Assembly (NCBI GenBank): GCA_036386615.1
Contig: DASVVH010000213.1
Coordinates: forward strand, 1-35,922
DNA from: Ardenticatenaceae bacterium
GTDB lineage: Bacteria; Chloroflexota; Anaerolineae; Ardenticatenales; Ardenticatenaceae
Reading direction: 5' to 3'
Length of the DNA: 35,922 nt
The position numbers were made by a program, and so were the translations under genes. Below the pieces are notes generated by a model. It was not told where the DNA came from and searched no databases. It saw nothing but the letters and a program-made list of their open reading frames with translations. How positions within the stretch are numbered: the first letter of the stretch is position 1; each line of letters starts with the position of its first letter. Shown one piece after another: positions 250 to 33,324 of this stretch.

Positions 250-3102
250 TTACTCCGGTAGCGGTTCGCCCGGCAGGGGTCCGGCGGGAACGAGCGCGGT
301 GTTGGGCGCGTTCGGGCTGGGGCTTCCCCCTGCCCATCCACCTGCCTGGTTGCGGTTGTAGGTGACGTTGGCATTGAGCACCGGGTAAGTAACGGTGTCC
401 ACAACAGCCCCGGCTGCATTCAGCAGGGATAGCGTGCCGCCCGTATCGCTCAGCACCAGCCCCGTCTGCTTGCCATAGAGGACCAGGAACTCGCCGCGCT
501 TCAGGTTCGTGCCCTGCGTGAAGCGGTAGATTGGCCCGTTCGCGCCCACTCGCAGTGCCCAGCCGTTCAGATTCACGTTGGATGTGCCTGCGTTGTGCAG
601 TTCGAGCCACTGGTCGCCCTGGTCCACAACACCGTCCTTGTTCCAGTCGTTCGCGCCCACGACGGTCAGCAGTTCGTTGAGCCGCGCGCCTGCTGGTTGC
701 GGCGCGACCGTGCTGGTCGGCGTCGCGGTGGGTGGCACCTGCGTGGGCGTGCTCGTAGGTGGTATAGGCGTGCTCGTCGGCGTGCTGGTCGGCGTGCTCG
801 TCGGCGGCACGGGCGTGCTGGTCGGCGTATTGGTTGGCGGCACAGGTGTGTTGGTTGGTGTGTTCGTCGGCGGCACGCGGGTTGGCGTGCTGGTGGATGG
901 AACCCGTGTAGGCGTGAGCGTGTTGGTCGCGGTGGGCGTGGGCGTCGCCATCAGCTCCCACCCCATTCTGATTCTCGCGTCGCCTACGTGGTCGTAATAT
1001 AGGACTGTTATCCTGTGATTGCCATTCAGCGACAGGTCCACGTAGTCGAAGTTGTTCTCGCTGTTGAACCAGCGCTTGAGCACTTCACGGTCGTCCACGA
1101 AGAGCCAGAAGCCGTCGTCGCCGTGTAGGGTGAGGCGGTAGGTGCCCGGCGCGAAGGAGAGTTCTCGCGTCCAGCGTGCCGAGAAGCCATCGGCAGGTAG
1201 GCCCGCCGCCGGTGCGTTGGTGCCCCAGTTGAAGTTAATCTCCCTGTCGTTCCGCACCAGCGCGGGGCTGCCGCTCAGGTTCCCGTTCGTCCAGTACTCG
1301 CCCTTCCACTCGCGGATGGTTGGCCCGGCCAGCTTCTCCCAGGCGAGGCGCACGCGGGCGTCACCCGTGCGCTCGTAGTATTCCAGGCGCAGGCTGTGCG
1401 TGCCCGTCGTCAGCGCGACTTCATTCGAGAGGTCGCGGGAGCCGCCATCGGACCACTCGTTGACCACCTGCACATCGTCTATCCAGAGGCGAACCCCGTC
1501 ATCGGCGGCGACGGTGAAGCGATAGCTGCCGCCGTCGAAGTGGAGGCTGCGCGTCCAGCGCGCCGAGAAGTTGTCGGCGGGAATGGCGCTCGCGGGCGAG
1601 CCGCCGCCCCAGTTGAAGTCGAGGTTAGTGTCATTGCGAACCAGCGCGGGGGTGCCGGAGAGCGAGAGGTTGTTCCAGTACTCGCCCTTCCATTCGGGGT
1701 AGGCGGCCAGCCGCTCCCACCAGGCGCGAACCTGCGCAGTGCCCTCGTTCTCGTAGTACTCCACGCGGACGCTGTGCGTGCCCGCCGTCAGCCGAACGTC
1801 GCCCTGCATGTCGCGGCTCGGCCCGTTCTGCCAGGCGTCAATTACCAGCGCGCCGTCCACGTAGAGCCGCATCCCATCGTCCACCCTCCCCCGGAAGCGG
1901 TACAGCCCCTCCTCGAAGGTTAGCTCACGGCTCCAACGGGCGGAGAAGCCATCGGCGGGCAGCCCGGCGGCAGGCGCGACGGTGCCCCAGTTGAAGTTGA
2001 CCTCGTTGTCGTTCCGCACCAGCGCGGGTGCTCCCGCCAGCGTGCGGTTGCCGTAGTATTCGCCGCGCCACGCCGTAATCGCGGGCGTCGCGGTCTGTGT
2101 TGGGTTCGGCGTGTTCGTCGGGTTGGGCCGCGTCGCCGTCGCGGCTGCGGGTACGGTCGTCGTTGTTGGGTTCGGGCGCGTGGCTGTCGCCGTCGCGGCG
2201 GGAGCGGGCGGTGTGTTGGTGGGGGCGGGCGGCGCGGGCGTGGCGACCACCGGGGCCGCGCCCGTGAAGTCCGTCAAAGCGCGCGAGACCCAGCCAATCG
2301 TGCCGTTGGGCAGCGCCACCTGGAGCCAGTCGCCCTCGCTATTCTGGCCGAGCACGGTCAGTTCCGTGCCCGACCCGCCGACGGTAATAATGGCGTAGCT
2401 CGTCCCCGGCCCGCGCCGCACGTTGGCGTCGCTGGTCAGGGTAGCGGCATCATCCGGCCCCGCCGCGCCGCCTTCCGGCAGCGTCGCGGTGGGCGGAACG
2501 GTTGCAGGCACCGCCTCTGTCGGAACCGCCGTCGCAGGCTCGCTGCTCGGCGGGGGAGTGGTCGGTTCAGCCGTCGCCGTTGTTTCGGGGGTCGTTCCGG
2601 TGGTCGGCGTCTCATCTACATTCGGGGTCTCCGTCACGGGTGCCGCCACGCTGACCACCTGGAAGGTCGCAGAGGTCGTGGCGCTGCCGGATGTCGCTTG
2701 CAGCACCACCAGGGCTGACGGCAGCGCCGTCCATCGTTCCTCCACAGGGTAAACAAACGTGCCGCTGACCTCGCCGCGCTCGTTCGCCTCTAAAATCAGC
2801 ACGGCGGCACCGTCAAGCTGGCCCGTCTGCGGGTCGCCGAGGCGCACCAGTATCGTCTCGCCCGATTGCCACCCCGCGCTCGCAAGCGTGACTGTCGTGC
2901 CCGGCGCGCCGCTCGTGGGCGAGAGCAGCATCGTAGGCTGGACGATGACGATGGCGGTGCTCCCCGGCGTCGGCTGGCGGTCCATTGCCCCCGCCGTGAA
3001 GCCGCCCAGCGCTATACCCAGTGCAACCGTAATCATCACGAAGAAGACGACGGTGAGAATCACCAGCCAGGAGTTTCTTTTTAGCGTATCCATCACGTTC
3101 AT
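250..3102 (-). CDS. Large membrane-anchored or secreted multidomain protein: N-terminal TM helix, Ig-like region, Pro/Thr linkers, bacterial SH3 domain, three tandem PA14 domains, C-terminal lamin-tail (LTD) domain
   Basis: The ORF 250..3141 has three ~125-aa repeats with the PA14 signature (W+GEYaxN..LsG.P...R.D..hNFNWG....PADxFSARWTR...F..G.YRF....DDG.RLahD). An SH3b-like segment reads ANVRRGPGTSYAIITV...GDWLQVALPNGTIGWV. An LTD-like C-terminus reads LNELL...QWLELHN.G...VNLNGWAL. I place the start at ATG 3102 (MNVMDTLKRNSW...), which has AGAGGGA 8 nt upstream; the longest ORF starts at 3141. Confidence 0.85.
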   Translation of the reverse strand: MNVMDTLKRNSWLVILTVVFFVMITVALGIALGGFTAGAMDRQPTPGSTAIVIVQPTMLLSPTSGAPGTTVTLASAGWQSGETILVRLGDPQTGQLDGAAVLILEANERGEVSGTFVYPVEERWTALPSALVVLQATSGSATTSATFQVVSVAAPVTETPNVDETPTTGTTPETTATAEPTTPPPSSEPATAVPTEAVPATVPPTATLPEGGAAGPDDAATLTSDANVRRGPGTSYAIITVGGSGTELTVLGQNSEGDWLQVALPNGTIGWVSRALTDFTGAAPVVATPAPPAPTNTPPAPAATATATRPNPTTTTVPAAATATRPNPTNTPNPTQTATPAITAWRGEYYGNRTLAGAPALVRNDNEVNFNWGTVAPAAGLPADGFSARWSRELTFEEGLYRFRGRVDDGMRLYVDGALVIDAWQNGPSRDMQGDVRLTAGTHSVRVEYYENEGTAQVRAWWERLAAYPEWKGEYWNNLSLSGTPALVRNDTNLDFNWGGGSPASAIPADNFSARWTRSLHFDGGSYRFTVAADDGVRLWIDDVQVVNEWSDGGSRDLSNEVALTTGTHSLRLEYYERTGDARVRLAWEKLAGPTIREWKGEYWTNGNLSGSPALVRNDREINFNWGTNAPAAGLPADGFSARWTRELSFAPGTYRLTLHGDDGFWLFVDDREVLKRWFNSENNFDYVDLSLNGNHRITVLYYDHVGDARIRMGWELMATPTPTATNTLTPTRVPSTSTPTRVPPTNTPTNTPVPPTNTPTSTPVPPTSTPTSTPTSTPIPPTSTPTQVPPTATPTSTVAPQPAGARLNELLTVVGANDWNKDGVVDQGDQWLELHNAGTSNVNLNGWALRVGANGPIYRFTQGTNLKRGEFLVLYGKQTGLVLSDTGGTLSLLNAAGAVVDTVTYPVLNANVTYNRNQAGGWAGGSPSPNAPNTALVPAGPLPGEPLPE

Positions 3103-3210
3103 TTCTATGGTCCCTCTACTCTCCAAGAGCAGCGCGAGCATCAGAACAATACAGTGCTCGACTTTCCTTAAGAGTACCGGATTCGGGTTCGTGTTACATC
3201 AGCTTGATAG

Positions 3211-3751: not shown

Positions 3752-5242
3752 TTGTTCGACAAAATCCTCATCGCCAATCGTGGCGAGATTGCCGTTCGCG
3801 TTGCGCGGACCTGCCGCCGCCTCGGCATCGCCACCGTAGCCGTCTATTCCGAAGCCGACGCGGGAGCCTATCACACCCGCGAGGCCGACGAGACCGTCCT
3901 CATCGGCCCGGCATCCCCCGCCCAGAGCTACCTTCGCGGCGACCGCATCATCGAGGCGGCGCTGGAACGCGGCGCGCAGGCCATCCACCCCGGCTACGGC
4001 TTCCTCTCGGAGAACGCCGACTTCGCTCAGGCCGTGCGCGAGGCCGGGCTGGTCTTTATCGGCCCGGACGCCGAGGCCATCGCGCAGATGGGGTCCAAGA
4101 CGGCGGCGCGGGCACTGATGGAGGCGGCAGGCGTGCCCGTCGTGCCGGGCTACCAGGCGGGGGGAAGCGAAGTGGAGTTCGCGGATGCCGCCGCGAGCAT
4201 CGGCTATCCCGTGCTCGTCAAGGCGGCGGCAGGCGGCGGCGGGAAGGGGATGCGCGTCGTCGAGCAGCCATCGGAGTTAGGGGACGCGCTCGGCTCGGCC
4301 CGGCGCGAGGCGCGCAATGCCTTTGGCGACGATACGGTTTTCCTCGAAAAGTACGTCACCGAGCCGCGCCACGTCGAGTTCCAGGTGCTCGCCGACGCGC
4401 AGGGCAACACCGTTCACCTCTTCGAGCGCGACTGCTCCATCCAGCGCCGCCACCAGAAAGTCATCGAGGAGACACCCTCCCCCATCGTGACGCCCGCCCT
4501 ACGCGCCCGCATGGGCGAGGCGGCGGTGGCGGCGGCACGCGCCGTCAACTACCGGAACGCCGGAACCGTCGAGTTCATCGTGGACGCGCAGGGCAACTTC
4601 TACTTTCTGGAGATGAACACGCGCCTCCAGGTGGAGCACCCCGTCACGGAGATGGTCACGGGGCTGGACCTCGTGGAACTGCAACTGCGCGTCGCGGCGG
4701 GCGAGCCGCTGCCCTGGACGCAGGACGACCTCGCGCAGCACGGCCACGCTATCGAGTGCCGTGTCTACGCCGAAGACCCCGCCAACAACTTCCTCCCCTC
4801 CACTGGCCCCGTCCTGCTGGCCGACGAGCCTGTGGGCGCGCGCGTGGACGCGGGCGTGAGGACGGGCGACGAGGTGACGATTCACTACGACCCGATGATT
4901 TCCAAGGTCATCGTCCACGCCGACACCCGCGACGACGCCATTCGCCGGATGCAGTGGGCGCTCGGTCACTACACCCTCCTCGGCCTCACCACCAACCTCG
5001 CCTTCCTGCGTGCCCTGCTCGACCACCCCGCCTTCCAGCGCGGCGAGGCGACCACCCACTTCATTGACCAGCATATGGGCAACCTGGAGGCACCACCCAG
5101 CCCGCCGCCGGACGACGCGCTCATCGCCCTGGCGCTCCACGACCTGCTGGCCCAGCGCCGCGCCGACGAGCCTCTGCGCCTGGCGAGTGGCGACCCCTAC
5201 AACCCCTGGCAACTCGCCGATGGCTTCAGGATGGGAGAGTAA
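3752..5242 (+). CDS. Biotin carboxylase (BC domain plus N-terminal part of the BT domain) of a methylcrotonyl-/propionyl-/acetyl-CoA carboxylase alpha chain
   Basis: MFDKILIANRGEIAVRVARTCRRLGI... followed by ATP-grasp motifs (GYPVLVKAAAGGGGKGMR, EMNTRLQVEHPVTE). The start is TTG with AGGAGAG 5 nt upstream. The protein ends ...DPYNPWQLADGFRMGE, which corresponds to the BC/BT junction of fused MCC/PCC alpha chains. Confidence 0.93.
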   Translation: MFDKILIANRGEIAVRVARTCRRLGIATVAVYSEADAGAYHTREADETVLIGPASPAQSYLRGDRIIEAALERGAQAIHPGYGFLSENADFAQAVREAGLVFIGPDAEAIAQMGSKTAARALMEAAGVPVVPGYQAGGSEVEFADAAASIGYPVLVKAAAGGGGKGMRVVEQPSELGDALGSARREARNAFGDDTVFLEKYVTEPRHVEFQVLADAQGNTVHLFERDCSIQRRHQKVIEETPSPIVTPALRARMGEAAVAAARAVNYRNAGTVEFIVDAQGNFYFLEMNTRLQVEHPVTEMVTGLDLVELQLRVAAGEPLPWTQDDLAQHGHAIECRVYAEDPANNFLPSTGPVLLADEPVGARVDAGVRTGDEVTIHYDPMISKVIVHADTRDDAIRRMQWALGHYTLLGLTTNLAFLRALLDHPAFQRGEATTHFIDQHMGNLEAPPSPPPDDALIALALHDLLAQRRADEPLRLASGDPYNPWQLADGFRMGE

Positions 5243-5244
5243 CT

Positions 5245-5730
5245 ATGGAGTTCCGCTACCAGCACGGGGAGGAAAGCTACGTCGTTCGCGTCACGGAGCG
5301 GCCCGGCGGCTTTGAGGTCCGCATTGGCGACCAAACCTATGAGGTGCGTGCCCAGGAGATAGACGCTTCTACGCTCGACCTGTGGATAGAGGGGCGCTAC
5401 CAGCGCGCCCGCCTCGCCACGCGCGAGGAGGAGCGTTGGGTCGCGCTCGATGGCGAGAGCCACCACCTGACCCGCGCCCGCCGACGCCGCAAACGCGGCT
5501 CGGCTGGGGAGGGCGAAGAGACCCTCGCCGCCTCCATGCCCGGCCAGATTGTCGCCGTCCTCGTCTCCTCCGGCGATACGGTTGAGCGCGGCCAGCCCCT
5601 CGTCATCATGGAGGCGATGAAGATGGAGCTTCGTGTCGCCGCGCCGCACGACGGCACCGTTGCCCGCGTCCTCGTCTCCGAGGGGGAAGCCGTCGAGCGC
5701 GGCCAGACGCTGATTGAGATGGGAAAATAG
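5245..5730 (+). CDS. Biotin carboxyl carrier protein: C-terminal part of the BT domain plus the biotinyl domain
   Basis: The biotinylation motif EAMKME is present and the C-terminal ~70 aa are typical of biotinyl/lipoyl domains. The ATG lies 2 nt after the upstream TAA, with GGGAGAG upstream, which indicates translational coupling. Confidence 0.9.
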   Translation: MEFRYQHGEESYVVRVTERPGGFEVRIGDQTYEVRAQEIDASTLDLWIEGRYQRARLATREEERWVALDGESHHLTRARRRRKRGSAGEGEETLAASMPGQIVAVLVSSGDTVERGQPLVIMEAMKMELRVAAPHDGTVARVLVSEGEAVERGQTLIEMGK

Positions 5731-5786
5731 ATTGTTCGCTGCCGAGGTCTATAGTTGTTCCTCACGAGGATGCTAATTCAACTTGC

Positions 5787-6554
5787 TTAACTGCTTAACT
5801 GTTGATATATGTATCCATAACTAGCGTAGTGGTCAAGGTCCTGCATAAGAAGAATCACCTTAAAGAAGAACGCGAATTCTTCAGGATTATCCATAGTGGC
5901 AGTCATCTCCTCTTTCACCTCTTCTTGAGATTCGAGTGCGTACTTGTGCCAGCCGATTCTTATCTCTGGTATTTCTTTTCGATAATCAATCTGCAAATAT
6001 CCATCACGGTAATGGAGGGTTGTGTCATCCTTGCCAAGTCCAGTATTTATATACATCTCGCTGCGTGTGGTTGAGGAAATGACTCTTTGTAGTACGGCAA
6101 TAAAAGCTGCTACTAAATCACAGTACACTTCAATGTCCTCTATTTGCGGCACTTCATAAGAATGTTCCATCGAGTTGCGGAGAGTATTTAAACGTACTAG
6201 AGACCGTGAGTTAAATATGTCGCACGCTTTCAGGAACTCAAGTTTCTTTTCAAACTTCAAGTTTTTCTTGTGAAATATCTGGTAAAGGTTATAGGCGTAG
6301 AAGAAAGTATCTAACTGACAATCCATAGCCCTCTTGAGATTGGTCACACAGTTAGTCAAATGCCGTATTCTCGCTTGGTCACTCGTTGCTTCTAGGTGCA
6401 AAGCGAGTTCCTGCTCTGCAAAGTTGAGGTAGTCACGGGCGTAGAGGTCGAAGTCTGGCGAGTCTGGATAGTGGCCGCCTGAACTATCAACCTCCATTGA
6501 ATCAATATTGTCCAGCAGGAAGCTACGAAGCTTCTCAATCTTTTCGGTTGACAT
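5787..6554 (-). CDS. Orphan hypothetical protein with a HEPN-type RNxxxH motif (Abi-like putative RNase) in a low-GC island
   Basis: A 255-aa ORF with GAGG upstream of its ATG. The local G+C is far lower than in the neighbouring genes. LRNSMEH (R126-H131, nt 6162-6179) sits in a helix-rich N-terminal ~160 aa, as does the Rx4-6H motif of HEPN nucleases. The C-terminal ~95 aa are of unknown function. Confidence 0.75.
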   Translation of the reverse strand: MSTEKIEKLRSFLLDNIDSMEVDSSGGHYPDSPDFDLYARDYLNFAEQELALHLEATSDQARIRHLTNCVTNLKRAMDCQLDTFFYAYNLYQIFHKKNLKFEKKLEFLKACDIFNSRSLVRLNTLRNSMEHSYEVPQIEDIEVYCDLVAAFIAVLQRVISSTTRSEMYINTGLGKDDTTLHYRDGYLQIDYRKEIPEIRIGWHKYALESQEEVKEEMTATMDNPEEFAFFFKVILLMQDLDHYASYGYIYQQLSS

Positions 6555-6765
6555 CTCTTCCTCTTTGATTGACTCTGTACCCTGAAAGTGCCGTAGACTG
6601 CAAGCAACTTCTTGTTAGATATTGATACATAAAGTGACTAAGGGCAAAGTCAGTACATGGTTGAGCATGGTCAGACGCTTTGATTCCTCCAACTGCATGG
6701 CGTCACGAATGGTCTGCTGCAATGGAAACATTGCCAAGAAGATAATTACTAGAGGTTGCTGATCT

Positions 6766-7572
6766 ATGAACACCATGAAATCAGATGACGACTGGCAGAT
6801 GCCCAGCCTCCGCCTCGATGGGCGCGTCGCGCTCGTCACGGGCGGCAGCCGGGGCCTGGGGTCGGGCATGGCCCTCACCCTCGCTCATGCCGGGGCGAAC
6901 CTCGCCCTCGCCGCGCGCACCCCCTCCGAACTCGAAGAGGCCGCCGCGCAGCTTCGCGCCCTTGGACGAGAGGTGATAACTATCCCCACCGACGTGTCCA
7001 ACGTCCCCGCCGTGCGAGAGATGGTCCACACCGTCGCCGACCACTACGGGCGGCTGGACATCCTCGTCAACGCGGCGGGCATCAACATCCGCCAGCCCGC
7101 CGCCACCTTCACCGAAGAGGACTGGGACCGCCTCATGGCCGTCAACCTCAAGGGAGCCTTCTTCGCCTCGCAGGAGGCCGCGCCCATCATGCGCCGCCAG
7201 GGCAAGGGCAAAATCATCAACGTTAGCTCCCTCTCCTCCGAGATTGTCCTGCCCAACATCGCCCTCTACGCCATCAGCAAGGGGGGTATGCGCCAGATGA
7301 CCCGCGCCCTCGCCGTCGAGTGGGCCGCCGATAACATCATGGTCAACGCCATCGCGCCGGGCCGCTTCTGGACCGCCATGACCAACGCCGTCTTCTCCAA
7401 CCCCGACCTGTACGCCAGCGCCGTCAGTGTTATCCCGCTGGGACGGCCCGGCGTTGCCAGCGACCTCGCGGGCGTCACCCTCCTCCTCGCCTCCGACGCC
7501 TCCGACTACATCACCGGGCAAACCCTCATCGTGGATGGCGGCTGGTCCGTCAGCGCGGGCGCGAAGGCATAG
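6766..7572 (+). CDS. SDR-family oxidoreductase (gluconate 5-dehydrogenase / KduD / FabG-like)
   Basis: It has the TGGSRGLG cofactor motif, an NAAG motif and the catalytic YAISKGG (YxxxK). Confidence 0.9.
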   Translation: MNTMKSDDDWQMPSLRLDGRVALVTGGSRGLGSGMALTLAHAGANLALAARTPSELEEAAAQLRALGREVITIPTDVSNVPAVREMVHTVADHYGRLDILVNAAGINIRQPAATFTEEDWDRLMAVNLKGAFFASQEAAPIMRRQGKGKIINVSSLSSEIVLPNIALYAISKGGMRQMTRALAVEWAADNIMVNAIAPGRFWTAMTNAVFSNPDLYASAVSVIPLGRPGVASDLAGVTLLLASDASDYITGQTLIVDGGWSVSAGAKA

Positions 7573-16043: not shown

Positions 16044-16315
16044 AACCAGGAGTTCCTCATCTTACACCCTTTGTCGCTAGCAATATGTGCGCCTTCAATG
16101 TAGAAGATGCACGGGTCTCAGGTGAATGGAGCCATTCTACCAGCTTTGTACAGAGATTGCCACTACCCAATTGAACTAGCTGATAGTATTAATGATGAAG
16201 ACTCATCTATCAATCATCTGCGGAGAAGATGAAACGGCTGATGTGCCATGTAGGAATATCTCGGCAGGTTGTTTTTGAGCCGACTTGCACTTTCAGCTTG
16301 GCGCAATCACTTTAT

Positions 16316-16364
16316 GTCAACAAATGCCAACATCTATCGCCCTTCAATGTTGGCATTTGTTGGC
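16316..16364 (+). promoter_or_regulatory. Perfect 16-bp (extendable to 18-bp) hairpin in the long low-GC region upstream of mgtC
   Basis: caacaaatgccaacat (16318-16333) is the exact reverse complement of atgttggcatttgttg (16347-16362), with a 13-nt loop. A second GC hairpin, ggcgggc/gcccgcc, lies at 16497-16515. Confidence 0.45.
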
Positions 16365-16565
16365 TTTGCTTCACATAACTATGGCCTGCGCCTACCCCAG
16401 CACAGCAACCTGTTATAACTTGAAGGACGTGTAGCCTAGCTTGGTCGGTGAGATTGGCAGGGAATATGCTTACTGCTGTTGATGCTCCTGTTCCTTGGCG
16501 GGCACGCTGCCCGCCATTATGCCCTCACCTTTGAAGCGGTGTCGGCTCACCCTCTGGAGGACCGC

Positions 16566-17051
16566 ATGAGTGAGAACGAAATCGGCGCGCTCAGTTTGGA
16601 GATGATCCTCGTTCGGCTCCTCGCAGCCGCCGTAGTTGGAGGCATGATTGGATACGAGCGGCACCTGCACCGCAAATCTATAGGCATCATGGGCATGGTC
16701 CTCGTGGCGGTGGGCAGCGCGACCTACATGATGCTTGCCAAGCACATATCCGCTACGGACCCCTCGGCGTTGGGCCGCGCCCTTCAGGGAATCGTTGGTG
16801 GAATGGGTTTCCTCGGCGGGGCTGTCATCTTCAAGGGCGGAACCGACGTGAAGGGCATCAAGTCGGCGGCTGCCATCTGGATTACGGGCGCTATCGGGAT
16901 GGCGATTGGGACGTGGTTCTGGCTTCTGGGGGTCATCGTGGGGGTCGCCACCGCCGTCGCGCTGTTCGTCGCCGACCTCGTTCCCGTGCCGGTGCCGGAG
17001 GAAGTCAAAGAAGCGATGGAGGAGAAGGAAAAGAAGGAAGCGGGAGATTGA
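16566..17051 (+). CDS. MgtC/SapB-family membrane protein
   Basis: LVRLLAAAVVGGMIGYERHLHRKSIG... is typical of the MgtC N-terminal domain. ATG 16566 has GGAGGA upstream. The C-terminal tail is acidic. Confidence 0.88.
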   Translation: MSENEIGALSLEMILVRLLAAAVVGGMIGYERHLHRKSIGIMGMVLVAVGSATYMMLAKHISATDPSALGRALQGIVGGMGFLGGAVIFKGGTDVKGIKSAAAIWITGAIGMAIGTWFWLLGVIVGVATAVALFVADLVPVPVPEEVKEAMEEKEKKEAGD

Positions 17052-28858: not shown

Positions 28859-29095
28859 TTATGATGCACCTGATGCGCTGGCTTCGCGGCGTGGAACCTG
28901 TGCAAGCTGAATAACGAGGCGTAATGCCTCGTTGACTGCTTCATCGTTCGGGAATGCCGCCGCCAATTCTGGCTCTAGCACAACTATATTCCGTCCCTGC
29001 CGCCGCGCGGGGTCGTATCGGCCTTTCGGCCTAATTGGTAGCTGCGAGAGATCATACTCTTCCCGCAGGTCATAGTTATCAGAGTCCTTCATCAT
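28859..29095 (-). CDS. brnA: BrnA-like antitoxin
   Basis: A 78-aa protein, MMKDSDNYDLREEYDLSQL...IVVLEPELAAAFPNDEAVNEALRLVIQ, which follows the pattern of antitoxins paired with DUF497 toxins. Its ATG overlaps the toxin 3' end by 17 nt. Confidence 0.75.
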   Translation of the reverse strand: MMKDSDNYDLREEYDLSQLPIRPKGRYDPARRQGRNIVVLEPELAAAFPNDEAVNEALRLVIQLAQVPRREASASGAS

Positions 29096-29360
29096 AAAAT
29101 CCTCGCTCCTGGCTGGTCGCCTTACGGGCACTGATAATTCGGATGCCTGTCTCATCATCAGTATGGGCGACAAGCAACAGTCGGTTACGGTCAGACATCC
29201 CGATTGTGATGAACCGCTCTTCGTCCGATGAATGTTCTTCATCATAGAATGAGATGAACAGTGGGTCATTGAAGACTGAGCGGGCTTCTTCAAAGCTTAT
29301 CTTGTGCTTCTGGAGATTTGCTGCTGCTTTACCTTCATCCCAATCGAAAGTCTGGTTCAT
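29079..29360 (-). CDS. brnT: BrnT-family (DUF497) ribonuclease toxin
   Basis: FDWDEGKAAANLQKHKISFEEARSVFNDP...EERFITIG...LLLVAHTD...IRIISARKATSQERGFY is the characteristic BrnT pattern. Confidence 0.88.
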   Translation of the reverse strand: MNQTFDWDEGKAAANLQKHKISFEEARSVFNDPLFISFYDEEHSSDEERFITIGMSDRNRLLLVAHTDDETGIRIISARKATSQERGFYDEGL

Positions 29361-32356: not shown

Positions 32357-32499
32357 ACGGTCTCCTCCTTCGTGGCGGCAGGTGGGTAGCGTGCCACCGT
32401 TTTCTAGTGAGCGGGTGGCTCCGCCGACAATGGGAAGCCACAGAGAATAGGGACAACCTTACATTGCTACTGGCCGGATTGGGTCCGGGCCGGGTGTAC

Positions 32500-32532
32500 A
32501 AAAAAGCCGGACGCCCTCGATTGGCGACCGGC
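32500..32532 (-). terminator. Intrinsic terminator or attenuator inside the korAB 5' leader
   Basis: The minus strand reads gccggtcgcc-aatcgag-ggcgtccggc followed by tttttt. The hairpin lies 143 nt upstream of the korA ATG. Confidence 0.6.
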
Positions 32533-32640
32533 CATGCAGTACAGCAGAGAGCAAGGGTTCAGGAATAGGTTTATTGCGAAACGAATTGGCTCGTATCTTC
32601 CCCAATCTACCCTCGTTGTGTGCATCCTTGCACTTTTGAC

Positions 32641-32669
32641 AGTATACCACGCGCCCCGCCTGCCGCCAA
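32641..32669 (-). promoter_or_regulatory. Sigma-70-like promoter with an extended -10 (TGgTATACT), directed toward korAB
   Basis: The minus strand reads TTGGCG, a 17-nt spacer ending in TGg, then TATACT. The -10 corresponds to plus-strand 32641-32646 and the -35 to 32664-32669. Confidence 0.5.
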
Positions 32670-32845
32670 TTTCTGGCCCCTTCCATCAAGAGGCCATGCA
32701 AAATCGGGGATTCATCTCCTTTCCAGAGCAAATGCCCTGCCAATGGCCCAAAGCTGTCGCGGCCCCATGATACAGTGGTCTCATAGAATGCGCTTTGTGT
32801 GCCTCAGCACCGTGCATGGTATTGAAGTAACCAGAAAATTGACTC

Positions 32846-32874
32846 TTCACATTATGTCTAATCCTTGGTATACT
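32846..32874 (+). promoter_or_regulatory. Sigma-70-like promoter with an extended -10 (TGgTATACT) for the 32941 gene and hpt
   Basis: TTCACA (32846-51), a 17-nt spacer ending in TGg, then TATACT (32869-74). It lies about 65 nt upstream of the GTG at 32941. Confidence 0.55.
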
Positions 32875-32940
32875 TTCTGCTAGGAAACTATGCAGGTTAC
32901 ACGTAGATAACGATACTGCTAGCTAGAAGGAGCGGGACGC

Positions 32941-33324
32941 GTGACCGAGAAACAGAACGCCCCACCCGACTTTGTGAACCCCGTCGAAGAAGAGTTCGCG
33001 CGACTCCTCGATTACTACGGAATCGAGTGGCAATACGAACCCCACACGTTCCCCCTCAGACGGAACGACGCAGGAGCCACTTTAGAAGCCTTCTCCCCCG
33101 ACTTTTTCCTCCCCCAGCAGAACCTCTACGTTGAACTGACCACCCTCCGCCCCCAACTCAACAGCCGCAAGAACCGCAAAATCCGCCTCATGAAAGAGCT
33201 TTACCCTGAGGTAAATGTGAAGCTCCTGAAGCGGCGCGAGGTGCGGAACCTGCTGTTGAAATACGGGCTGGACGACGCGGCGCAGGGCATTCTGGGCACC
33301 GAGGCCCAGACGAGCGAACCGTGA
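32941..33324 (+). CDS. Conserved-looking hypothetical protein with a possible PD-(D/E)xK-like nuclease-fold signature
   Basis: The GTG start has GGAG 8 nt upstream. The sequence EEEFARLLDYYGIEWQYEP...FSPDFFLP..NLYVELTT resembles the E...PD...ExK-type arrangement, although the third residue is T rather than K. Its stop overlaps the hpt start (GTGA). Confidence 0.6.
   Translation: MTEKQNAPPDFVNPVEEEFARLLDYYGIEWQYEPHTFPLRRNDAGATLEAFSPDFFLPQQNLYVELTTLRPQLNSRKNRKIRLMKELYPEVNVKLLKRREVRNLLLKYGLDDAAQGILGTEAQTSEP

Follow-up and report, generated by a model that had tools for sequence, protein, structure and literature searches.

A low-GC slot between housekeeping genes of a Chloroflexota-like bacterium harbours a putative one-gene cassette for a divergent Ishtar-type HEPN protein

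The Ishtar family was defined in a July 2026 bioRxiv preprint by the monogenic Acinetobacter baumannii genes ist1 and ist2, which lower conjugation of the plasmid RP4 more than 1000-fold (10.64898/2026.07.06.735840). Induction of ist leads to rapid plasmid loss with a slight and transient effect on viability, and the ist genes are sufficient alone in naive strains (10.64898/2026.07.06.735840). The proteins carry a HEPN domain (‘DUF4145 or DUF3644’) at the N-terminus, followed by a C-terminal domain with five or seven strands and three helices; their distribution is patchy and includes Vibrio integrons and P4 satellites, and ist2 sits between core genes with shuffled neighbours (10.64898/2026.07.06.735840). 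As mechanism, degradation of the RNA primer for plasmid replication was hypothesised in the preprint (10.64898/2026.07.06.735840). Here, we describe a gene encoding a protein of 255 amino acids (aa) on an island of low G+C (GC) content at positions 5731-6765 of contig DASVVH010000213.1 from an Ardenticatenaceae bacterium, whose 35,922 nucleotides (nt) are referred to as the window. By sequence and profile comparison, the protein is a divergent new member of Ishtar, a known but barely characterised family documented so far in one preprint. The island is probably a laterally acquired one-gene Ishtar cassette in a recombination-prone slot between housekeeping genes, which would protect its host against mobile DNA.

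The GC content of the island is 0.429 and that of its flanks approximately 0.65-0.70. The drop is sharp, as 200-nt windows gave values of 0.375-0.495 over positions 5700-6800 and of 0.61-0.75 on either side. A previous sequence-only reading of this DNA had pointed to the low GC and to one convincing minus-strand gene with a good ribosome-binding site, and both observations hold: the sole credible gene of the island is an open reading frame (ORF) starting with ATG (Table 1), the purine tract AAAGAGGAAGAG stands immediately before the start codon, and the other ORFs are antisense or overlapping. A match to a sigma-70-type promoter was not found in the island. Further upstream on the same strand, gene finders called a 38-aa ORF in the loci L003-L005; it had no homologue and no family or Pfam match, is unrelated to the small ORF upstream of the homologue P0008 and is probably neither a gene nor a partner. 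Neither a tRNA in the window nor an integrase near the island was detected, TRF gave no tandem array but just an 18-nt trivial repeat, and no flanking repeat exceeded chance expectation, the best pair of flank and island segments agreeing in 16 of 21 nt. Likewise, the searches of the window confirmed that a partner ORF is missing, as had been claimed together with the lack of an integrase, a tRNA and flanking repeats. Rfam had no match in the island and no family at gathering score anywhere in the window, and the 211 nt upstream of the gene folded no better than shuffled sequence (z = 0.01). The 16/21-nt pair (5691-5711 and 6659-6679) was considered as an att-like duplication and rejected, because approximately two such pairs are expected by chance per 1.7 kb (estimate); the similarity also does not match the mapped boundary of the cassette. 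The two segments, of which one is the 3' end of the gene for the biotin carrier protein and the other lies inside the island, both read VE[RH]GQTL in frame.

The gene had been regarded as an orphan, but this is wrong since 719 cluster representatives matched the protein at E ≤ 1e-3 in an exhaustive phmmer search, 86 of them at E ≤ 1e-30; most are approximately 240-250 aa long. With approximately 700 clusters at 50% identity, the family appears to be much larger than the RefSeq-based table of the preprint suggests. A word-indexed search with the window protein returned 27 homologues with identities of 34-58%, and three further independent assemblies encode the identical 255-aa protein, again between carboxylase and short-chain dehydrogenase (SDR) genes. 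The sequence LRNSMEH starts at residue 125, with R126 encoded by nt 6177-6179 and H131 by nt 6162-6164, exactly where it had been read before. A bare Rx4-6H motif is uninformative by itself, because it occurs approximately 1.0 times per 255 aa in the other proteins of the window and at least once in 14 of 21 genes. LRNSMEH, however, is meaningful because it hardly varies among homologues and because of where it lies in the fold. R126-N127-S-M-E130-H131 is invariant in an alignment of 28 sequences (A1), RN.[MILV]EH was present in 167 of 176 retrieved sequences, and among 148 full-length members the conservation amounted to 100% for R126, 99% for N127, 99% for E130, 98% for H131 and 99% for P136; R126 and H131, whose conservation had been named as a check, are therefore kept in the family. 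Near-perfect conservation of the motif over hundreds of divergent members argues for purifying selection on activity. The rest of the protein diverges faster: mean pairwise identity was 0.43 in the HEPN core (59% in helix 3) but 0.16 in the C-terminal strands, 0.24 in the terminal helices and 0.24 in the N-terminal arm. As a further feature of HEPN helix 2, C69 and C79 (around positions 6318-6350 of the minus strand) do not vary in the 28-sequence alignment, and 85-89% of the 148 members have them; they are part of the signature INCVxxLKRAxDCQ and are missing from more distant Ishtar clades (Acinetobacter, Burkholderia). Four members (P0050, P0053, P0103 and P0152) are longer, with 322-362 aa and 40-130 extra N-terminal residues before the conserved region; they could be domain fusions or have mis-called starts.

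The assignment to Ishtar was approached from several sides. Searches of RefSeq plasmids independently yielded two family members that belong to the clade of the window protein, and both are included in Table S3 of the preprint: WP_065845615.1 of B. cereus, which matches 97% of the window protein at 39.9% identity, and WP_152472712.1 of Vibrio THAF strains. The family hidden Markov model (HMM) matched 20 of 20 sampled sequences of this table with E-values of 2e-81 to 7e-5, and all of them carry RNxxEH at the corresponding position. A 218-aa Acinetobacter protein in the table ends in HGYFWY-stop, which is also what the ist2 cloning primer LP.138 encodes when read as its reverse complement; this protein was therefore taken as Ist2-type. 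Aligned to it by hhalign over 167 columns, the family profile reached a probability of 99.5% (E 3e-22) with the motifs in register, and BLASTP of the window protein gave 29% identity over 141 aa (E 3e-16). The homologue criterion of the authors, an iterated HMM with E < 1e-5 and coverage > 70% (10.64898/2026.07.06.735840), was emulated; an HMM built from 14 Table S3 sequences outside the clade of the window protein detected the latter with E 1.1e-27 and 86% coverage (Z = 49.3 million), which is within both limits. In addition, the non-HEPN part of the structural model has five strands and three helices (Table 1), as in the description of Ishtar. The window protein shares with Ishtar the size of approximately 210-260 aa, the N-terminal HEPN domain with RNxxEH, the five-strand/three-helix module, the organisation as a single gene, the patchy distribution and the location in a core-gene slot with shuffled content. 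It differs in belonging to a distinct clade with the signature INCVxxLKRAxDCQ...LNxIRNKxEHxY and two conserved cysteines, and its host is a high-GC uncultured Chloroflexota-like bacterium. For this clade, activity against RP4-type plasmids is not to be assumed. The island was proposed earlier to encode an undescribed system; this no longer applies, as the family was named in the July 2026 preprint, with anti-plasmid activity for two members. The island thus reveals no new kind of system, but an unannotated ‘hypothetical protein’ of a poorly sampled lineage, probably within Chloroflexota, is placed in a family with a newly proposed function against conjugative plasmids.

The protein was modelled by AlphaFold2 with a pLDDT of 88 and a pTM of 0.84 at full length and a pLDDT of 94.9 for the HEPN domain only. 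HEPN proteins ranked top in Foldseek searches of the Protein Data Bank (PDB) with either model, and the top eight matches of the domain model were all HEPN/HepT, at E-values of 0.06-0.3. The best match was AF_0298 (2hsb) with template modelling (TM) scores of 0.64/0.68, a root mean square deviation of 3.1 Å and a probability of 0.99, followed among others by HI0074 (1jog; TM 0.52) and HepT chains (probability 0.85-0.98). HEPN domains are defined by Rx4-6H at the end of helix 3 or the start of the loop between helices 3 and 4, with a polar residue (N, D or H) after the arginine (PMC3710099). In the model, the stretch from R126-N127 onward closes helix 116-131 as in this definition, the helix topology agrees with the published one (PMC3710099), and the loop between helices 3 and 4 holds the invariant P136. 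A second conserved acidic residue of HEPN proteins is located in helix 2, typically within Ex3[KR] (PMC3710099); helix 2 of the family has invariant K74, R75, D78 and C79 in alignment A1, and its pattern KRAxDC differs from Ex3[KR]. Model and conservation together make it very likely that the window protein has the HEPN fold and a conserved RNxxEH motif of the catalytic type. The four-helix HEPN bundle had been anticipated and was recovered, whereas the motif, expected at the start of the last helix, was found at the end of helix 3; since this is the canonical HEPN position, the expectation was slightly off. The N-terminal arm is predicted to belong to a non-HEPN alpha/beta module and may pack with the C-terminal sheet. 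That the C-terminal part resembles nothing recognised was also confirmed: it had no Pfam match, and no structural match ranked above the weak ones of the HEPN domain. With the full-length model, the top matches in PDB and BFVD were those of the HEPN domain (E approximately 0.02-0.05).

Sequence profiles placed the protein in no annotated family. Pfam, NCBIfam, PADLOC and PHROGs had no match for the window protein, searches of PDB sequences with the protein and three profiles gave nothing meaningful, and a profile of the N-terminal domain found 134 matches which all belong to the same unannotated family, without annotated remote relatives. Below threshold, relatives matched HepT-like (E 6e-4, two of 74 members), HEPN_Cthe2314 (0.012), RiboL-PSP-HEPN (0.039) and DUF4145 (0.085) models. 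All of these weak matches are to families of the HEPN clan, over the motif region where coordinates were visible, and the DUF4145 match in a Vibrio Ishtar relative also covered the motif region (13.4 bits versus a gathering cut-off of 23.1). Two family members, P0027 of Pelosinus baikalensis and P0241 of Acetobacterium malicum, bear the UniProt name ‘DUF4145 domain-containing protein’; the Pfam model DUF4145 (PF13643, clan CL0291), however, matched neither these two nor the window protein at cut-offs as loose as E ≤ 1 to 10, and the UniProt name was not reproduced with the Pfam copy used.

Two other types of HEPN systems were compared. RAZR/PD-T7-4 is a single-gene system as well, with a divergent HEPN domain that contains an essential R and H and a non-catalytic domain that mediates activation, and compared with classical HEPN proteins the HEPN domain of RAZR is just ‘structurally somewhat similar’ (PMC13017515). 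In RAZR, an N-terminal Cys4 zinc ribbon precedes a C-terminal DUF4145 HEPN domain, whereas the window protein lacks a zinc ribbon and has its HEPN domain in an N-terminal to central position; RAZR also acts against phages by abortive infection and is switched on by phage portal-like rings (PMC13017515). A search for membership in RAZR/PD-T7-4 gave no PADLOC match at E ≤ 10, and the only two conserved cysteines, C69 and C79, are both in helix 2. HepT/MntA and minimal HEPN proteins (DUF86, HEPN-T such as AF_0298 and HI0074) are the best structural matches and carry Rx4H at the end of helix 3, but the window gene is not adjacent to an MNT nucleotidyltransferase or other antitoxin gene, its product has the extra alpha/beta module, and the profile similarity is below threshold. 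An MNT-type antitoxin gene was found neither among the ORFs of the island nor as a conserved neighbour in 46 loci of the family. A search for an RNA partner as in type III toxin-antitoxin or abiF-like systems revealed no tandem repeats, no Rfam match and no unusual upstream fold.

Next to the gene, the island is bordered by conserved genes on both sides (Table 1). Alternative contents of this slot were found on the contigs of proteins that cluster with either flanking protein at 90% identity. In two relatives, L136 and L137, the flanks are 93-94.5% identical to the window at the nucleotide level; the homology stops at the stop codon of the biotin carrier gene (position 5730) and restarts at GACTGGCAG, at approximately 6787-6790, so that the first approximately eight codons of the SDR gene fall within the variable segment. 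In L136, the biotin carrier and SDR genes are separated by a 170-aa gene of the UDG superfamily (L136:8072-8584, Pfam UDG E 5e-15, GC 0.55), and in L137 by a 445-bp gap with a 64-aa hydrophobic ORF (L137:2630-2824, GC 0.49). Three distinct cargos of lower GC (0.43, 0.54 and 0.49) in one slot that lacks a mobility gene suggest that the cargo is exchanged by recombination through the conserved flanks. Horizontal acquisition, as proposed before, is borne out by the low GC together with other cargo in the same slot at approximately 94% flank identity, and the locus is a clean natural case of an Ishtar gene as swappable cargo, with three alleles in one slot. When metagenome contigs were searched with the 161-aa flank protein, the best relatives were only approximately 40% identical, and no empty site came to light. 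Regarding the flanking operon itself, the alpha subunit of the carboxylase is split into a 496-aa biotin carboxylase (3752-5242, plus strand) and the separate 161-aa BT_MCC_alpha/biotinyl-carrier protein (5245-5730, plus strand), an arrangement kept in L136 and L137. The best matches of this biotin carboxylase in named organisms were from Ardenticatenaceae (73%), then from Chloroflexi, Anaerolineae and Caldilineales, and the host is probably an uncultured member of Chloroflexota. The minus-strand gene at 250-3141 encodes a 963-aa secreted-type protein with three PA14 stretches, an SH3_3 domain and a lamin-tail domain, and a similar protein of 976 aa adjoins the carboxylase genes in L136.

Across 185,579 species-representative genomes, the family was found at 47 loci in at least eight phyla and is rare and patchy. 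The loci span Bacillota, Bacteroidota, Acidobacteriota, Cyanobacteriota, Pseudomonadota, Planctomycetota, Verrucomicrobiota, Spirochaetota and Desulfobacterota; none of the 47 is from Chloroflexota. At nearly all of 46 loci, the gene has a lower GC content than the sequence on either side; the mean difference is 9 points, and at 31 loci it exceeds 5 points. No conserved neighbour was found within 7 kb on either side (ORFs of at least 60 aa, 46 loci), and no conserved micro-ORF of at least 25 aa within 500 bp of 47 family members, in line with the earlier view of a stand-alone gene. The neighbourhoods are heterogeneous and mostly consist of ordinary metabolic or transport genes. Genuine defence genes near homologues were OLD/GajA/AriA, NsnB and PDC-M55A (two each), serine recombinases were present in three neighbourhoods, and most PADLOC matches among the neighbours were cross-matches of ABC-transporter ATPases. 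The idea that homologues sit in defence islands is therefore correct for a few loci, but most neighbourhoods are not of this kind. Family members are also carried by eight large Bacillus, Vibrio and Burkholderia plasmids. A phage origin was considered and is unsupported, as tblastn against 50,697 phage records gave no match.

Judging from the biology of HEPN proteins (PMC3710099, PMC13017515), the window protein would be a metal-independent endoribonuclease. Its active site would be composite and formed by dimerisation of two HEPN domains, as in other HEPN RNases, with the histidine acting as general base and the arginine stabilising the transition state, as expected from established HEPN biology. 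The contrast in conservation with the HEPN domain suggests that the fast-diverging alpha/beta module, made up of the N-terminal arm and the C-terminal sheet and helices, decides when the RNase is active or what it cleaves. By analogy with Ist1 and Ist2, the gene would protect the cell from invading mobile DNA, with conjugative plasmids as the presumed target, and plasmids would be removed by plasmid loss, not by cell suicide; a role in phage defence may be considered as well. Residues R126, N127, E130 and H131 and the contrast of 43% versus 16-24% identity make both RNase catalysis and the role of the module directly testable. Several observations weigh against this interpretation of the island as an Ishtar cassette. 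The function of Ishtar is documented by one non-peer-reviewed preprint on two A. baumannii proteins and one plasmid, RP4, without catalytic mutants or an RNase assay; the similarity to the Ist2-type protein is confined to the HEPN domain, at only 29% identity, and the C-terminal modules barely align, hence target specificity is not transferable. Moreover, Foldseek gave weak E-values (0.045-0.3) and also matched generic four-helix bundles at TM scores of 0.40-0.47, no curated Pfam model of the HEPN clan matched the window protein or its relatives at threshold, and recognised defence genes are present in only a few neighbourhoods of homologues. In the clade of the window protein, trigger and target may also be other than those of the RP4-specific proteins from Acinetobacter, for example if the variable module directly senses a phage or plasmid protein. 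This is a tentative idea to which we give a low probability; it is suggested by the identity of less than 30% to Ist2, the clade's own Cys69/Cys79 pair and the hypervariable module. If it were true, the Ishtar scaffold would serve phyla including Chloroflexota and archaea as a general one-gene RNase sensor that can be reprogrammed.

The evidence from motif and fold applies equally to a stand-alone HEPN toxin for anti-phage abortive infection, in which the variable C-terminal module would sense a phage protein and thereby trigger indiscriminate RNA cleavage, with death or arrest of the infected cell, as in RAZR/PD-T7-4, AbiV and ApeA. A precedent for a single-gene HEPN system of this type is RAZR with its activation by phage ring proteins (PMC13017515), a fast-evolving non-HEPN module is what would be expected of an arms-race sensor, and a few homologues lie beside OLD/Gabija-like, NsnB or PDC-M55A genes. 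Yet the protein matches nothing in PADLOC or PHROGs and is absent from the phage records, the neighbourhoods are mostly not defence islands, and the tested relatives showed plasmid loss at a limited, transient cost in viability, not the cell death of abortive infection (10.64898/2026.07.06.735840). We therefore consider this explanation unlikely, and the toxin or abortive-infection module which the sequence-only reading had put forward is unsupported, since what the tested relatives cause is plasmid loss with a slight transient drop in viability and an antitoxin was not found. If the gene were instead the toxin of a toxin-antitoxin pair, its antitoxin, a small protein, an RNA or the product of an unlinked gene, must have been missed. 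Many HEPN RNases are indeed toxins of such pairs, including HepT/MntA, which provides the best fold matches, and gene callers place the 38-aa ORF upstream on the same strand. This ORF has no relatives, however, the searches for conserved ORFs in the 46-47 loci were negative for both size classes, tandem repeats, Rfam matches and a stable upstream RNA (z = 0.01) were not found, and ist genes need no partner in naive strains (10.64898/2026.07.06.735840), which makes a missed antitoxin highly improbable. A function outside immunity, either as neutral or selfish cargo or as a niche HEPN protein for RNA processing or regulation that is shuffled between genomes, would fit the mostly metabolic or transport genes around homologues, a clade without known trigger, target or phenotype, and a slot that holds cargo of non-defence appearance in relatives (the UDG-family gene and the 64-aa ORF). 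Against it stand the near-perfect conservation of the motif with the purifying selection on activity that it implies, the anti-plasmid phenotype demonstrated for relatives (10.64898/2026.07.06.735840), and a rare, patchy and AT-rich spread typical of conflict genes, with members on large plasmids and, according to the preprint, in Vibrio integrons and P4 satellites. This explanation is accordingly regarded as improbable.

Table 1. Coordinates of the island, its gene and the flanking genes in the window
Feature	Position	Strand	Basis
Variable low-GC cassette, slot between two conserved genes	5731..6789		GC and end of flank homology
Left conserved flank: gene of 161-aa biotin carrier protein (BCCP; BT_MCC_alpha/Biotin_lipoyl)	5245..5730	+	Pfam; ~94% nt identity to L136 and L137 up to the stop codon
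Right conserved flank: gene of 268-aa short-chain dehydrogenase (SDR)	6766..7572	+	Pfam; homology to relatives
Gene of 255-aa Ishtar-family HEPN protein (assigned by comparison)	5787..6554, stop codon included	-	ORF, homologues, family tests
Purine tract AAAGAGGAAGAG resembling a ribosome-binding site, immediately upstream of ATG	6555..6566	-	Read from sequence
N-terminal arm, residues 1-27: helix 4-19, strand 20-23	6474..6554	-	AlphaFold2 secondary structure
HEPN domain (predicted), residues 28-160: H1 39-55, H2 59-87, insert helices 91-96 and 101-110, H3 116-131, H4 138-159	6075..6473	-	AlphaFold2, Foldseek
Codons of R126-N127-S-M-E130-H131, predicted catalytic Rx4H motif at the end of helix 3	6162..6179	-	Conservation and AlphaFold2
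C-terminal module, residues 161-255: strands 164-169, 185-192, 197-205, 212-220; helices 224-242, 246-254	5790..6074	-	AlphaFold2
38-aa upstream ORF, called by gene finders in L003-L005	6615..6731	-	

Elsewhere in the window, some further regions stood out. Upstream of the gene of an MgtC-like membrane protein (16479-17051) lies an ORF-free stretch of approximately 430 bp (16050-16480) with a GC content of 0.47; it has no Rfam family at gathering score, and a leader or riboswitch at this place, if there is one, would be of a type not yet described. Another stretch of approximately 500 bp (32400-32900, GC 0.52) is poor in ORFs and without an Rfam family, and adjoins a 127-aa ORF (32941-33324, plus strand) with a sub-threshold match to Phage_endo_I (E 9e-5, 22.6 bits versus a cut-off of 29.1). 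A second low-GC patch at 28.5-29.5 kb (GC 0.49-0.54) contains the gene of a 93-aa RNase toxin of the BrnT family (29079-29360, minus strand; Pfam BrnT_toxin, E 2.3e-30). It is overlapped by an ORF downstream of it (28859-29293, minus strand) whose C-terminal 78 aa look like a BrnA antitoxin by eye but have no Pfam match.

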